Shown piece after piece: positions 6,180-16,911 of a DNA stretch of 40,395 nt. The stretch is from IMG/VR virus record IMGVR_UViG_3300045988_071833. The stretch is one strand, 5' to 3'. How positions within the stretch are numbered: position 1 is the stretch's first letter; every line of letters begins with the position of its first letter. The notes beneath the pieces were generated by a model. The model had not been told where the DNA came from. It was given only the letters and a program-made list of their open reading frames with translations, and did no database searches. The DNA comes from a virus. The translations under genes and the position numbers were made by a program.

Positions 6180-6393
6180 GCGATGCGGGATTGAGTTTTC
6201 GGGGCGGAACAAACGGAAAGGCCGCATCCTGTGCTCAAAGTGTATGGATATTGAGTGGGAGGCCAGGCGGAGAGAACGGAAACGGACGAAATCAAGACCA
6301 CAGGGGCAAAGCCTGGCCCAAGTGGCAGCGGAGGCCCGGGCCCATGGGATGACGTATGGGCAGTGGGTGGCGCGGGCAGGAGGAGGAACATAG
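6151..6393 (+). CDS. Small basic zinc-ribbon protein
   Basis: MRKILIYTCERCGIEFSG...CSKC followed by an Arg/Lys-rich tail. Confidence 0.55.
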   Translation: MRKILIYTCERCGIEFSGRNKRKGRILCSKCMDIEWEARRRERKRTKSRPQGQSLAQVAAEARAHGMTYGQWVARAGGGT

Positions 6394-6752
6394 TGGATAT
6401 TGATAAGCTGATTGAGGCCATAAGGCTGTGCGGGAGTCAGCCGAACGTCCGGCAGTGCAGAAATTACGCTTACTATGCGGGCGGGGATATGAGCAGATGC
6501 ATCCCGCGCATGACGGCGGATGCCTCCGCCGCGCTCTCCGCGCTCCGGGCCGAGCTGGAGCAAGTGAAGCGTGAGAGGGATGCGGCGTATAAACTACTTG
6601 GTGGAGAGCCCCCAAAGACCTGTAAGACCTGTGTCCTTTGGGGTGGAAACGGATGGGGACAGTACCAAATTGGGTACTGTGACGGAGATGACAACCCGCA
6701 TGGGCCGAATGATTTTTGTTCCAGGCATCACGGGCCGCAGAAGGAGCTATGA
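6393..6752 (+). CDS. Hypothetical Cys-rich protein with a central coiled coil
   Basis: AGGAGGAGG RBS plus GTG 6393 overlapping the upstream TAG. Sequence ALSALRAELEQVKRERDAAYKLL...CKTCVLWGG. Confidence 0.55.
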   Translation: MDIDKLIEAIRLCGSQPNVRQCRNYAYYAGGDMSRCIPRMTADASAALSALRAELEQVKRERDAAYKLLGGEPPKTCKTCVLWGGNGWGQYQIGYCDGDDNPHGPNDFCSRHHGPQKEL

Positions 6753-9274: not shown

Positions 9275-9492
9275 GCGAGTGGATCAGCGTGAAGGACAGG
9301 CTGCCGGAACCCGGGGAAAAAGTAATTACTTTTTTGAGGCTGGCCGGAAGCCCGATGATAGAAACAGGATATTTTATGGGCGATGACGGTTGGTATTACA
9401 TAGGGATTGAAGCGCCACATCACGATGTTGTCACCCACTGGATGCCGCTGCCGGAACCGCCCGGCGGAGAAACAAAAAAGCCGCCCCTGTGA
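9271..9492 (+). CDS. DUF551 domain protein
   Basis: GTG start. WISVKDRLPEPGEKV....VTHWMPLPEPP is the classic DUF551 pattern. Confidence 0.7.
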   Translation: MSEWISVKDRLPEPGEKVITFLRLAGSPMIETGYFMGDDGWYYIGIEAPHHDVVTHWMPLPEPPGGETKKPPL

Positions 9493-9502
9493 TGGGGCGG
9501 CT
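9479..9502 (-). terminator. Rho-independent terminator of the minus-strand operon, between convergent genes
   Basis: agccgcccc-tgtgat-ggggcggct. On the minus strand it is followed by a T-run (complement of aaaaaa at 9473-9479). Confidence 0.7.
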
Positions 9503-9536
9503 TGGTGCGGGGGGGGGATGCGCGGTAGAGCGCACA

Positions 9537-9818
9537 TTACAGCAGCTCCCTCACATCCACGTCCAGCGCGTCCGCCAGAGCCAGAGCATTGGTGAGGGTG
9601 ACGTTGCCCATCTTACCCTCGCCCTGCTCGATGCGCTGGATCTGTCTTTTATTGACGCCGGACCGCGCTGATAGCTCGTCGAGGCTCATGTGCTCACGGC
9701 GGCGGGCCCACTCCAGATTTGTGATTGGCTTATTGCGGCAGTCGCGTCCGTAAGACACCAGGGAGCAGACGGTACAGTCGCCGTCTGCCCGGATGCAGTC
9801 TCCGTATTTTCGCCTCAT
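9537..9818 (-). CDS. XRE-family HTH regulator with N-terminal Cys4 cluster (aca-like position at the operon end)
   Basis: C-terminus MSLDELSARSGVNKRQIQRIEQGEGKMGNVTLTNALALADAL is an HTH_3 fold. N-terminus has CIRADGDCTVC...C. ATGA-coupled to the upstream gene. Confidence 0.8.
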   Translation of the reverse strand: MRRKYGDCIRADGDCTVCSLVSYGRDCRNKPITNLEWARRREHMSLDELSARSGVNKRQIQRIEQGEGKMGNVTLTNALALADALDVDVRELL

Positions 9819-10153
9819 TTGATCACCTGGTTGTAGTATCCGTGCTCACCGTCGTTACCGAGCCGCTCCACGTCATCCAGACTATATCCCCTAAAATACT
9901 TGATTTGAGGTGGAACTCCCAGGCCGGGGAGGTCATGGTGATGCTTGTACAGGTAACGCATAAGCTGTATTTTGACAGGCTCGGTTAAGTCATCCGGGAT
10001 GCCGCCAGGCGCGGAAGCGGCCAAGTGGAGATATCCATCTTGGGCTTTGCGGTCATCGGACACGACATCCCATCCGTCCTCAGAAAACTTGACTACTGCT
10101 TTCCCGCCGAAGTAGGACATAGCGATAAGAGTGATTTCATTGGCTTTTTCCAT
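9815..10153 (-). CDS. Hypothetical 112-aa protein
   Basis: AAGGAGGATG RBS; no recognisable motif. Confidence 0.6.
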   Translation of the reverse strand: MEKANEITLIAMSYFGGKAVVKFSEDGWDVVSDDRKAQDGYLHLAASAPGGIPDDLTEPVKIQLMRYLYKHHHDLPGLGVPPQIKYFRGYSLDDVERLGNDGEHGYYNQVIK

Positions 10154-10207
10154 TTTACATCCTCCTTTTTTGTTGCCATCGTGAGTTTCGGGGTGAGATT
10201 TCTGTTT

Positions 10208-10459
10208 TTAGATTTCGCTTTGCCATGCTTCAAATTTTGCGATCATCGTATCATCTGATACTCTGTGATATTCCGCGACAATCCTCAAGTCCCCGGTCCC
10301 AGTGGCGGGCTCAACTTTCTCCCACCAGTCCCAGCCAAAGTCTCCTTGTACGTCCTCCTCGGCGGCTACGTCTACAAGCTTGTCGCTGTATGTCTCCTCA
10401 TAGTTGTACCCGCTCCCGTCAACCCACTCTTTAATCTTGATAACTTCTCTTACTTTCAT
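10208..10459 (-). CDS. Small, very acidic Trp-rich protein (83 aa)
   Basis: AAGGAGAAAG RBS before ATG 10459. Sequence MKVREVIKIKEWVDGSGYNYEETYSDKLVDVAAEEDVQGDFGWDWWEKVE. Confidence 0.65.
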   Translation of the reverse strand: MKVREVIKIKEWVDGSGYNYEETYSDKLVDVAAEEDVQGDFGWDWWEKVEPATGTGDLRIVAEYHRVSDDTMIAKFEAWQSEI

Positions 10460-10509
10460 TTTCTTTCTCCTTCTGCCCTCGTGACCTCCGGGGCGGGACG
10501 TTTCCTGCG

Positions 10510-10740
10510 TTAATATTGCCAAGTGATTTTTTGCTCGTTATCCATATCGACCCAAGCAAGTTTATATGTCTTTTTGAGGCTGCTGCCGTAGTAGCCGCCA
10601 ACCGTGACATATACACGGTGCTTTCCGTAGTTTTCCCACTCTCGTGCGTTCAGCTTGTAGCTATCATACGCGCTCATAATTTTTTCCGCTTTTTCCGTTA
10701 TGGTTTCGATGGTTTCTTTTGTTAATCCGTAATTTTCCAT
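10510..10740 (-). CDS. Hypothetical 76-aa protein
   Basis: CAGGAGGAAC RBS; first gene downstream of the consensus promoter. Confidence 0.6.
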   Translation of the reverse strand: MENYGLTKETIETITEKAEKIMSAYDSYKLNAREWENYGKHRVYVTVGGYYGSSLKKTYKLAWVDMDNEQKITWQY

Positions 10741-10787
10741 TTTTGTTCCTCCTGATTTTGATCTGCCAGATCCCTTGCTGTGATTAT

Positions 10788-10816
10788 ATTATACGCCAAT
10801 ATTGCCGGATTGTCAA
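10788..10816 (-). promoter_or_regulatory. Perfect consensus sigma-A/sigma-70 promoter (TTGACA-17-TATAAT)
   Basis: Minus strand reads gtaTTGACAatccggcaatattggcgTATAATataat. Palindromes caatattg (10797-10804, in the spacer) and gatctgccagatc (10760-10772, in the 5' UTR). Confidence 0.75.
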
Positions 10817-10862
10817 TACAAAATGCTAAAATTATCTGATATTTTTTAGGGAGGGATAACGG

Positions 10863-11090
10863 TTGAATGAGTTCCCGGAGCGGTTGAGGAAACTGAGGGA
10901 GAGCAGGCGTCCGGTGCGGAGTATGGCGGTGACATCCGAACTGATGGGGCTAAGCCACGATGCGCTAAGGCGGTATGAGCGCGGGGAGCGAGAGCCAGGA
11001 TTGACGGAGCTAAAACTGATAGCCAATTATTACTACGTCAGTTTGGACGATCTTTGTTGGGATGATGGAGAGCAGGAACACAATCTTTAA
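10863..11090 (+). CDS. XRE/Cro-type HTH transcriptional regulator
   Basis: GGGAGGG RBS plus TTG start. FPERLRKLRESRRPVRSMAVTSELMGLSHDALRRYERGEREPGLTELKLIANYYYVSLDDL. Extended -10 TGcTAAAAT at 10824-10832. Confidence 0.75.
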   Translation: MNEFPERLRKLRESRRPVRSMAVTSELMGLSHDALRRYERGEREPGLTELKLIANYYYVSLDDLCWDDGEQEHNL

Positions 11091-11672
11091 ACATATCGCA
11101 AAAATATTTTGTACATGCCTCCATTTGGAGGCATAATAACCGGGTCATATGCGACAATGGGAGCGTGGAGGCGAATGCCTCCCGCTCCCTTCCATTTCCT
11201 CCTCCTTTCCCATCGCCGGGCCTCCCTCCCGGCAACGGCCCGCAGGCAAAGCCGTAAACCTGCAACATAGCCCGTAAGGGCTATATGTCCTTGTAGCTTA
11301 TGAGGTAAGAGCGGCCCCATGATCGGGGCAGAGGCCGGTTCGAGCCCGGTCGAGGGCACAGAAAACCACGCCTGCCCTGGTCTCGGGGCGGAAGCGGGGA
11401 GATGAGAGACTATCCCCGGCGCGCTTGCCAGCTGAAAACTGCCGCAGTCGAGTGGCACGGGCGGAAAGCGCCGTGTCCGGAGACTAACCCAATTATCCGG
11501 GGCGGTGTGACAATCTAAGCGGGGCAGCGCATATATGCCGCGCCTATCCGCATGAGGATATGGACGGCCCTATGGATGTGCCCCGAGCTGCGGCGGGTGG
11601 CCCGCAACAAATCAGGAGAGGGCGGGGAGCGGGGGCCGCTCTCTCCTCCGAAAAAACGAAACCATATGAGAG
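11091..11672 (+). ncRNA. Candidate large structured non-coding RNA (ROOL/GOLLD-like class or novel)
   Basis: About 580 nt with no plus-strand ORF >=60 aa. Multiple GC-rich hairpins, some capped by plus-strand GNRA loops (11267-11284 GTAA; 11456-11475 GAAA). A tRNA-like cloverleaf is embedded. Confidence 0.45.
11287..11358 (+). tRNA. tRNA-like cloverleaf with an aberrant 6-nt anticodon loop (not a canonical decoder; no encoded CCA)
   Basis: 7-bp acceptor stem gtccttg/cgagggc. U8, D-stem gctt/gagc, A14, G18G19, A21. Anticodon stem gcccc/ggggc with loop atgatc. 4-nt variable loop. T-arm gccgg-TTCGAGC-ccggt. Discriminator A. Confidence 0.5.
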
Positions 11673-11681
11673 GTGGCGATC

Positions 11682-12104
11682 ATGGCTGCGCGTTTGACGG
11701 ATAAGCAGAAAAAGAAAATAGTGGCTGATTATCTGGAATGTGAAAGCTATAACGCCACGGCAAAGAAAAACGGCGTTTGCGGGCAGACCGTGCGCCGTGT
11801 TGTCGAAGAATCTCAAGGATTCACTGAAAATCTCAAACGAAAAAAAGACGAAAACACCGCTGATATTATCGCTTACATGGAAAGCAAGCGTGGAATCGTG
11901 TGTGAGATATTGGGAAAAGGGCTTGAAGCGCTGAACAGCCCGGACAAACTGAGAGAAGCAACTCCGGCGCAGATCACGACGGCAATGGGGACGCTGATAG
12001 ACAAGTGGACAGCCATAAGCGGTGGGCCTGCCGATACCGCCAAAGAGGACGATTTGAGTAAGAGCCTGAAGGAAATGGCGGAAGGGCTGGAAAGCGATGA
12101 ATGA
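11682..12104 (+). CDS. terS: Terminase small subunit (alternative GTG start at 11673)
   Basis: AGGTGG RBS 5 nt upstream. N-terminal HTH (LTDKQKKKIVADYLECESYNATAKKNGVCGQTVRRVV). Lies upstream of terL. Confidence 0.75.
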   Translation: MAARLTDKQKKKIVADYLECESYNATAKKNGVCGQTVRRVVEESQGFTENLKRKKDENTADIIAYMESKRGIVCEILGKGLEALNSPDKLREATPAQITTAMGTLIDKWTAISGGPADTAKEDDLSKSLKEMAEGLESDE

Positions 12105-16279: not shown

Positions 16280-16678
16280 TCATCCGACACTCAACCTGGA
16301 CAGCAGGCCTTCTTGCAATACCTGGGAACAGTTGATGCCCCGTTTATCCGCAAGGTCTGCCATCCAGGACGGAAGAGATACATTTTTTCGGACGGCCCTT
16401 GTGTCGGTGGCGGCGCGGTATGCAAGTGTGTCAACCTGGATGAGAGACAGCACATCGGTTGGTTCATGCTCCAACGCGGCCTGTGGAGTGGCACTTGGAA
16501 TGGGAAGAGATTTATCTTCCGCCACTACAAGCCAACCGGAGGCGGCATCGGTGATTTGCTCAATAGCGTCTTCGATGCTGTCTCCTGTGGTGACGCAGCC
16601 GGGAAGGTCGGGAATACGGGCGTACAGTTCGGTTCCATCCTCTGTGGGGGTAAAGATCGCGGTATAGGTATATTTCAT
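16280..16678 (-). CDS. hicB: HicB-family antitoxin with C-terminal RHH-like DNA-binding tail
   Basis: GGAGG RBS. MKYTYTAIFTPTEDGTELYARIPDLPGCVTTGDSIEDAIEQITDAASGWL. C-terminus RKNVSLPSWMADLADKRGINCSQVLQEGL. Confidence 0.85.
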   Translation of the reverse strand: MKYTYTAIFTPTEDGTELYARIPDLPGCVTTGDSIEDAIEQITDAASGWLVVAEDKSLPIPSATPQAALEHEPTDVLSLIQVDTLAYRAATDTRAVRKNVSLPSWMADLADKRGINCSQVLQEGLLSRLSVG

Positions 16679-16716
16679 AATAGCCTCCATGATAGCAAGG
16701 AGGTCAAGGGGCTTTA

Positions 16717-16911
16717 TTAGCCCCTATCCCTCCGGTTTTGTTTGATTTCCTTGCGTATGTATCGGAGCGTATTTTCGGTGAACTTGTGGCGCTTGACGGG
16801 GATGGAGCATTTCAATCCTGGATTGTAGTAGATGTCGTGGTTGGTTCCGTGCCGCTCGAATCTGTATCCGCCTTTGTCAAGCTCTTGAATCGCCTGATCT
16901 CTTGGAGTCAT
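16717..16911 (-). CDS. hicA: HicA-family mRNA interferase toxin
   Basis: LDKGGYRFERHGTNHDIYYNPGLKCSIPVKRHKFTENTLRYIRKEI; 64 aa; GGGAGG RBS. Confidence 0.85.
   Translation of the reverse strand: MTPRDQAIQELDKGGYRFERHGTNHDIYYNPGLKCSIPVKRHKFTENTLRYIRKEIKQNRRDRG

Follow-up and report, generated by a model that had tools for sequence, protein, structure and literature searches.

In acr-aca operons, genes for small anti-CRISPR (Acr) proteins are accompanied by a gene for an anti-CRISPR-associated (Aca) regulator. The promoters of Aca1 to Aca10 have consensus -35 and -10 elements, with one inverted repeat that in every case lies within the core promoter and, in several families, another repeat, and the matching Aca protein represses them (PMC9410906). 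AcaFinder recognizes short-gene operons as genes on the same strand, with gaps of less than 250 bp, that encode proteins of less than 200 amino acids (aa) and a helix-turn-helix (HTH) protein of less than 150 aa with a Pfam match; an Acr homologue and a location in a phage, prophage or mobile element are further criteria (PMC9765179). A 2026 survey lists Aca1 to Aca14 and asks whether zinc-finger regulators control acr operons (PMC13551039). Here we analyse a four-gene antisense operon (genes A, B, C and D) in the IMG/VR virus record IMGVR_UViG_3300045988_071833, a stretch of 40,395 bp that is referred to as the window. This locus works like an acr-aca operon, yet fits no known Aca or Acr family.

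The cassette resembles the operons of Aca1 (Pseudomonas phage JBD30) and Aca2 (Pectobacterium phage ZF40) in being a short same-strand operon for small proteins that ends in a small HTH gene. With these, and with the Aca1-Aca10 set, it shares a strong consensus-like promoter with an inverted repeat in the core promoter and, in several families, another one close by. Further common traits are a conserved regulator with variable cargo upstream and a location in a phage or prophage. Unlike in acr-aca operons, the terminal regulator D has no detectable sequence relationship to the structurally solved Aca proteins and carries an N-terminal module of four cysteines (the Cys4 module) that is present in no described Aca. 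Moreover, the cargo includes no known Acr, a zinc-ribbon gene often comes after D, and the hosts are strictly anaerobic gut Clostridia.

Cassettes with AcrIIA1 (Listeria prophages) or AcrIIA15 are also similar, as Firmicutes prophage cassettes in which an XRE-type HTH autorepresses the strong promoter of small inhibitor genes, an activity that is predicted for D. The position of the Listeria acr cassettes, close to the lysis/integrase end of the prophage, is shared by sister cassettes of the present one. In AcrIIA1 and AcrIIA15, however, the HTH forms one protein with an inhibitor domain and is encoded first or within the Acr, whereas D stands alone as the terminal regulator and has a Cys4 module. 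The controller (C) proteins of restriction-modification systems, such as C.AhdI, C.BclI and C.Esp1396I, are comparable in their HTH fold and in their autoregulation via paired palindromic operators at their own promoter. C genes, in contrast, precede and control methyltransferase and endonuclease genes, and C proteins are without Cys4; no methyltransferase or endonuclease gene was present in the window cassette or in any surveyed cassette. By description, the cassette can further be likened to Aca14, a ribbon-helix-helix (RHH) Aca, in that the DNA-binding domain is exchangeable while the cassette logic is kept, although no Cys4 module is described for Aca14 (PMC13551039).

Anatomy of the cassette

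The window looks like a complete temperate siphovirus and encodes a terminase, a portal, an amidase, a large serine integrase and HTH repressors, with prophage repressor genes at 35510-35914 and 36957-37319. Short DNA matches led to phages of Flavonifractor plautii, and one D homologue is annotated from this species; we propose that the window represents a temperate siphovirus of gut Oscillospiraceae with a Flavonifractor-like host. The initial annotation of this DNA, which was made from its letters alone, had described a block on the opposite strand between the early genes and the packaging module. This is indeed an antisense insert at the early/terS junction, flanked upstream by plus-strand genes for a dATP/dGTP diphosphohydrolase and a DUF551 protein and downstream by terS, terL and an SPP1-type portal gene. 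Its features, in the order of transcription, are as follows.

10825-10836, minus strand: operator Op1, GATAATTTTAGC, a degenerate operator copy upstream of the -35 element, centred 30 bp from Op2
10788-10816, minus strand: consensus sigma-70/sigma-A promoter, with -35 TTGACA at 10811-10816, a 17-bp spacer and -10 TATAAT at 10788-10793
10794-10807, minus strand: operator Op2, palindrome CGGCAAT.ATTGGCG at spacer positions 4-17, the predicted binding site of D
10760-10772, minus strand: palindrome in the 5' untranslated region (UTR), GATCTGGCAGATC, not conserved
10510-10740, minus strand: gene A, 76 aa, neutral isoelectric point (pI), motif W-x-N-Y-G-K-H-R-x-Y
10208-10459, minus strand: gene B, 83 aa, ATG start and GGAG ribosome-binding site
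9815-10153, minus strand: gene C, 112 aa, pI 5.4, a lineage-restricted orphan
9537-9818, minus strand: gene D, 93 aa, Cys4 module and XRE helix-turn-helix, the predicted autorepressor
9478-9503, minus strand: intrinsic terminator, a 10-bp stem with 8 GC pairs followed by the T-run TTTTTTGTTT

The three small proteins of 76, 83 and 112 aa named in the initial annotation were all recovered as minus-strand open reading frames, and the terminal XRE-HTH gene is coupled to them as claimed, the stop codon of C overlapping the start codon of D as ATGA. All four genes are thus encoded on the same strand, with gaps of 50 bp between A and B and 54 bp between B and C and a 4-bp overlap between C and D, which are inside the AcaFinder limit of 250 bp. 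The protein sizes (76, 83, 112 and 93 aa) and the Pfam HTH match of D likewise fall within the limits of this program. Each gene is preceded by a Shine-Dalgarno sequence, an excess of third-codon-position substitutions relative to related loci marks A to D as real genes, and membrane-like segments were found in none of the four proteins.

The exact TTGACA-17-TATAAT promoter, which had also been pointed out before, scores 12/12 with a predicted transcription start near 10781, and no other exact match occurs in the window. When one mismatch was allowed, two matches were observed against a mean of 0.05 in shuffled sequences. With Op2 in the core promoter and Op1 nearby, these exact -35 and -10 elements correspond to the Aca-type promoter layout (PMC9410906). 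The sole other near-consensus promoter of the window, TTGACA-17-TATCAT with one mismatch (37912-37940, plus strand), adjoins the HTH repressor genes close to the integrase and presumably belongs to the lysis-lysogeny switch. At the other end of the operon, the expected terminator after the last gene was found as a hairpin (9503 to 9478) with a T-run.

Operators and the terminal regulator

DNA around homologues of D was taken from IMG/VR and GTDB genomes, which gave 84 loci (designated by L numbers) with D identities of 52-100%. A TTGAC[AT]-17-TATAAT-like promoter was present in 84 of the 84 loci, with at most one mismatch in 73 and two mismatches in 11, and the spacer was always 17 bp long. 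Nearly all of these loci have a 14-bp palindrome, consensus CGCTAATATTAGCG, at spacer positions 4-17 and flush with the -10 element; the exception is L111, where one has to go 1.4 kb upstream to the nearest promoter, which has another palindrome. The palindrome caatattg that the initial annotation had noticed in the spacer is the core of this longer operator, CGGCAAT.ATTGGCG (10794-10807). Op1 occurs in several lineages only, including that of the window. At its position L021 and L119 have a perfect palindrome, ATGCTAATATTAGCAT, and it changes together with Op2 in L026 and L088.

The operator sequence also varied in step with the recognition helix of D. The helix NIRQIQRVE is paired with the operator CGCTAATATTAGCG, while helices ending in QK[VI]E (RLVQKVE, RLIQKIE, YIRQIQKVE) are paired with CGCC[AG]ATATTGGCG-like operators. 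The helix NVRLIQNVE of L088 goes with the operator ATGATAATATTATCG, and the helix HPAQLQKIE of L026, where D is just 52% identical, goes with AGTCAATTGAGT. Elsewhere in the window there was no exact match to the degenerate operator pattern, near matches occurring at chance frequency, and D therefore looks dedicated to its own promoter. Taken together, the conservation of the operator, its co-variation with the recognition helix and the lack of another site in the window are strong indirect evidence that D binds this promoter and is dedicated to it. On these sequence comparisons it is highly probable that D represses the promoter of its own operon.

Three other operator-like sequences were considered. 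The initial annotation had put a second operator at the palindrome in the 5' UTR (10760-10772), which proved not to be conserved: its counterpart is GACCGGGCAGATC in L002 and L004 and is absent in L007 and L011-L015. It was rejected as an operator, not being kept even in phages with a 99% identical D; the conserved second site is Op1 at 10825-10836. Another sequence, CGCTGATATTATCG, within terS (11858-11871, plus strand), has 13 nt in common with the operator of the closely related cassette L075. It is missing from the terS genes in all 16 loci of the window's lineage and was rejected as a functional site, the likeness probably being due to chance. Finally, the sequence TGGCAATATTAACG (minus strand, two mismatches) at 10508-10521 spans the stop codon of A, where it may merely reflect the conserved C-terminal peptide TWQY.

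D belongs to a family of 375 protein clusters, nearly all of 93 aa and from gut metagenomes. Its HTH domain (residues 35-92) matches Pfam HTH_3 with an E-value of 9.4e-10. The N-terminal cysteine cluster that had been reported for this protein has the pattern C8-x6-C15-x2-C18-x8-C27, and the four cysteines are invariant in alignments of 27 and 118 homologues. In both alignments the first 37 residues, which make up the Cys4 module (nt 9708-9818), are more conserved than the HTH. An AlphaFold model of D gave a confident five-helix XRE domain and was poor for the Cys4 part. When this model was compared by Foldseek, the predicted fold matched C.AhdI and C.BclI best, followed by SinR and 434 Cro. 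For C.AhdI the sequence profile gave an E-value of 5e-3, and Foldseek an E-value of 5e-4 with a root-mean-square deviation of 1.3 A and 35% identity. A profile of 27 D homologues searched against all sequences in the PDB retrieved only 434 Cro and C.AhdI at E-values up to 0.01. HipB and other antitoxin HTH domains were among the structural neighbours of D, which also had weak matches to NCBIfam models of antitoxin-type HTH domains. Neither the PDB sequence profile nor Foldseek placed D closer to the structurally solved Aca proteins than to generic XRE repressors. By sequence and predicted structure, D lies outside every structurally solved Aca family, though it behaves like an Aca.

In about half of the related cassettes (L019, at 6282-6692, and 37 other D loci) D is directly followed by a gene, F1, whose start overlaps the stop codon of D. 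The product of F1 is a basic protein (pI about 9.3; 136-196 aa) that contains several CxxC zinc ribbons and has a tail rich in Lys and Arg. The window has no F1, and its terminator comes straight after D.

The Cys4 module is not confined to D. It comprises about 30 residues with the pattern (D)YC-x-Q/R-x-DG-x-C-x2-CSLV[NS]YGRDC-x-N-x-P, takes the form YC-x-QN-x-G-x-C-x-TCSLVNYGRDC-x-N-x-P outside XRE proteins, and is always N-terminal; the module of D can be written as (D)YCTQN.GDC.TCSLVNYGRDC.NNP. We found it in small open reading frames of Spirochaetales, Desulfobacterota, Planctomycetota, Chitinivibrionales and other metagenome-assembled genomes, as well as in Methanosarcina virus MetMV (L067, 2471-2692) and many non-gut viral contigs. 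The loci concerned are as follows.

L059-L065, L067, L146-L148, L167, L177, L186, L199, L201, L206, L216 and L220-L224: Cys4 proteins other than XRE proteins

The partners to which the module is fused include XRE-HTH domains, RHH-like tails (RPGAG...KRRTFLLTD.EH.KVKE), excisionase-like HTH domains, zinc ribbons and others, and the module is better conserved than the DNA-binding domains among them. In several non-gut phages a Cys4 protein is encoded by the last gene of a short operon that has a near-consensus promoter with repeats in the spacer. No Pfam or NCBIfam model covers the module, and its motif had no full-text match in the literature searched. The identifiable organisms that carry it are anaerobes. 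It is conceivable, although we hold it to be unlikely, that the module is more than a structural zinc knuckle and serves as a cofactor-binding sensor or timer, attached to varied DNA-binding domains, that controls burst-then-silence cassettes in phages of anaerobes. The anaerobic hosts are compatible with a bound cofactor; an oxygen- or redox-labile iron-sulphur cluster is the candidate, a speculation from the cysteine spacing. FNR and the WhiB-type regulators are models for such a comparison.

Exchangeable cargo and mobility

Tracing the genes that accompany homologues of the HTH protein, a check suggested by the initial annotation, revealed interchangeable small-protein families upstream of D. 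By BLASTP clustering, at least 15 unrelated cargo families separate the promoter from D in the related loci. Their members are 57-133 aa long, most with a pI of 4.1-4.9, and have no membrane segments. The set A-B-C occurs in 16 of the surveyed loci, and the commonest sister cargo is the F2 family (107-109 aa), with 30 loci. Further families, of 86-91, 72, 128, about 61 and about 128 aa, were each found in 3-10 loci, and several others are singletons. An example of the exchange is the phage of L008/L075, where D is 97% identical to that of the window and the cargo is entirely different.

The proteins of the window had been called unrecognizable, and A, B and C have indeed neither a Pfam match nor a match to a functional family. 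A matches phrog_5091, a family of unknown function (E-value 1.5e-5), is 39% identical to a 62-aa cargo protein of L024, and has one genuine distant homologue (P0134) among 1.84 billion representatives. Matches of A to large FG-GAP/VCBS-type repeat proteins (P0132, P0133) were spurious and due to the repeat AWGDMDGDGD. B, described earlier as extremely acidic and Trp-rich, has a pI of 4.28, a net charge of -11 and 5 Trp in 83 residues, and its F-x-WDWW motif is conserved. B evolves faster than the other genes of the operon, with 338 nonsynonymous versus 229 synonymous codon differences. Homology of B to a 124-aa cargo protein of L024, based on a shared DF-x-WW motif, was not significant and was rejected. 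C is represented by 7 protein clusters only, all at least 80% identical, among 5.8 billion proteins.

Scans of A, B, C and 20 sister cargo proteins against Pfam, PHROGs, NCBIfam and PADLOC gave no functional match, the sole exception being a weak ParB-N-like signal in one singleton; searches of PDB sequences likewise yielded no function for these proteins. Against the 5027 defence-system models of PADLOC, A-C and the sister cargo had 0 matches. For A, B and C there was no PDB chain match at E-values up to 10, the PDB including solved Acrs, and no annotated homologue in 50,697 phage records, while tblastn of the cassette proteins against annotated phages and plasmids found no function. F2 comprises 83 clusters, all hypothetical, and belongs to a PHROG family of unknown function. 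The structure predicted for F2 is an alpha/beta fold with confidence scores of 94 (pLDDT) and 0.85 (pTM). In Foldseek comparisons of this model, the PDB gave no match (best E-value 1.3, TM score below 0.35) and BFVD gave uncharacterised phage proteins only. Anti-defence proteins are typically small, acidic orphans with novel folds and rapid turnover, but these traits are no proof of such a role.

Cassettes of the F2 type (L019-L027, including L024 and L025) have a 3-4-bp GC hairpin in the 5' UTR, directly before the ribosome-binding site. The hairpins take the forms GGGG..CCCC, GGGA..TCCC and GGGT..ACCC, and the fourth pair varies in an apparently compensatory manner. The 5' UTR of the window has the non-conserved palindrome GATCTGGCAGATC instead.

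The position of the cassette varies between genomes. In the window and in L019 it occupies the early/terS junction, and in L125, L058, L024 and L100 the lysis/integrase junction; all its relatives are on viral contigs, in line with the mobile-element criterion of AcaFinder. We propose that the cassette is a self-contained, horizontally mobile accessory unit. Its cargo was also found with other regulators. Blautia phage Montmirail (L066, ON453898.1, 2835-3300) has an F2 homologue with 50% identity, alone on the antisense strand at the genome end. This gene has a TTGAAT...TATAAT-like promoter, where a different palindrome, ATTCGTACGAAT, occurs in the spacer and again about 58 bp upstream, and its operon is without a D gene or any other regulator gene. 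Dulem virus 39 (L226, PP511791.1, 2189-4453) has a full-length homologue of B with 37% identity, in which F.WDWW is kept. Here a small Cro/C1-type HTH protein is encoded first and the B homologue third, along with a 159-aa zinc-ribbon protein and two more unknowns. Non-gut phages have F11-like and F22-like cargo upstream of Cys4 proteins that carry RHH-like tails.

On the other side of its promoter, the cassette of the window faces a gene that the initial annotation had not mentioned.

10863-11090, plus strand: gene E, a 75-aa XRE-HTH protein (HTH_3, E-value 8.5e-9), divergent from the cassette promoter

E and the cassette promoter share a 122-bp intergenic region. E adjoins the cassette in all 16 members of the window's lineage; the L097 type has it on the opposite side of the cassette, and it is absent from the flanks (about 4-6 kb) of the remaining D loci. 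Being displaced or absent outside the window's lineage, it was rejected as an obligate partner of the cassette. Between E and terS is a GC-rich, hairpin-rich non-coding gap of about 580 bp (11091-11672). It contains a tRNA-like gene identified by ARAGORN (11287-11359, plus strand), with a good acceptor stem, a GGTTCGAGCCC T-loop and an abnormal anticodon loop ('tRNA-???'). Rfam gave no match in the promoter region or in the gap before terS, and known RNA elements were rejected for both. A second antisense insert, within the head/structural module, is a HicA/HicB toxin-antitoxin pair (16280-16911, minus strand), supported by HicB_lk_antitox (E-value 2e-12) and by HicA_toxin (E-value 2.5e-4, under the Pfam cut-off).

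Function of the cassette and competing explanations

The initial annotation had read the locus as acr-aca-like. The strong promoter, the small proteins without recognizable relatives and the terminal, self-repressing HTH protein of this reading have strong comparative support; its anti-defence function continues to be an inference. We consider an autorepressed cassette with anti-defence cargo the best account of the locus and give it a probability of roughly 0.55, a figure that combines a high probability of autorepression by D with about even odds that the cargo proteins counteract host defence.

In the mechanism that we propose, the promoter would fire on DNA entry, since a consensus promoter is independent of a phage activator. 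The small soluble proteins A, B and C would then be made, and D last. As D accumulates, its dimer would bind Op2 together with the weaker Op1, three helical turns upstream, exclude RNA polymerase and bring the operon down to a low set-point. Such a shut-off would prevent the antisense promoter from colliding with rightward phage transcription into terS, and this risk of collision may be the selective reason for so tight and universally conserved an operator. The cargo would most likely neutralize host immunity, as anti-CRISPR or other anti-defence proteins, with B as the best candidate for a nucleic-acid mimic or decoy.

Several observations weigh against an anti-defence cassette. No cargo protein is homologous to a known anti-CRISPR or anti-defence protein, as judged from PDB sequences and from Foldseek comparisons with the PDB and BFVD. 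A is neutral and C mildly acidic only. The HTH of D is nearest to restriction-modification controllers, SinR and 434 Cro, the HTH of AcrIIA15 following at rank 49 in Foldseek. The coupling of F1 to D in about half of the loci has no counterpart in described acr-aca operons. Lastly, the antisense orientation, the own terminator and the integrase-side positions are equally typical of morons expressed in lysogeny.

The locus might be a lysogenic-conversion moron, expressed from the prophage at an autoregulated steady level, with A-C benefiting the lysogen, for example by superinfection exclusion or through host physiology, instead of aiding the phage against immunity. It would be a typical moron in lying antisense to the flanking lytic genes with its own promoter and terminator, its sister cassettes occupy the classical moron site between the lysis module and the integrase, and HicA/HicB is another antisense insert in the same genome. 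The constant set-point that results from negative autoregulation would also suit prophage expression, whereas a promoter of maximal strength with tight shut-off is a costly way to a low constant level. Exclusion proteins, moreover, are usually membrane proteins, whereas the cargo has no membrane segments; A-C and the sister cargo match none of the defence-system models, and tiny, acidic and rapidly replaced proteins fit inhibitors better than effectors. We regard a moron function as unlikely on this balance.

The presence of E raises the comparison with the immI region (mnt / arc-ant) of Salmonella phage P22, in which a strong promoter in the late region is shut off soon after infection by a small repressor from the same operon. 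There, a second repressor gene is divergent, Arc and Mnt are both RHH proteins, and Arc is encoded by the first gene. In a secondary immunity region or developmental switch of this kind, D would correspond to Arc and E to Mnt, and the cargo would be antirepressors or modulators of the lysis-lysogeny decision or of late expression. Within the window's lineage E, a second small XRE repressor gene, is divergent from the same 122-bp region, much as in immI, and the cassette lies just upstream of the packaging genes; in L019-type loci the divergent neighbour looked Bro-N/antirepressor-like by eye only, without a family scan. Unlike in immI, however, the cargo is variable, and E is beside the cassette in this lineage only and is displaced or absent elsewhere. 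That F2 spans host genera and different regulators would be unexpected for the partners of one phage repressor, as would the exchange of unrelated cargo behind a near-unchanged regulator within one lineage (L008 and L075), and we find an immI-like switch improbable. Less probable still is a toxin-antitoxin or addiction module, in which D would be the autorepressing HTH antitoxin and the toxin would be one of the proteins encoded upstream. HTH antitoxins do autorepress their own operons, and both the HipB-type structural neighbours of D and its weak NCBIfam matches to antitoxin-type HTH domains point in this direction. A fixed partner would be expected, however, where at least 15 unrelated families stand behind one regulator, and the acidic cargo contains no toxin domain that Pfam, PADLOC or other family scans could find. 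Besides Cys4, which is invariant while the cargo changes, D has no obvious toxin-neutralizing domain.

Anti-defence genes have so far mostly been found via about a dozen Aca regulators, largely from Proteobacteria and with few from Firmicutes, and D defines a new candidate regulator family in phages of the abundant, hard-to-study gut Oscillospiraceae. Its promoter/operator signature is directly searchable and already flags at least 15 small-protein families, one of which (F2) has a predicted fold that is absent from the PDB. Should the cargo proteins be immunity inhibitors, they would provide new tools and new biology for gut phage-host dynamics. Were the Cys4 module a sensor, repression of anti-defence cassettes would respond to a cellular signal, and the Cys4 proteins would form a new and widespread class of phage regulators and a handle for anti-defence genes in gut and sediment viromes. 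The module is an uncharacterised building block of phage regulators that may add signal sensing to the Aca paradigm.

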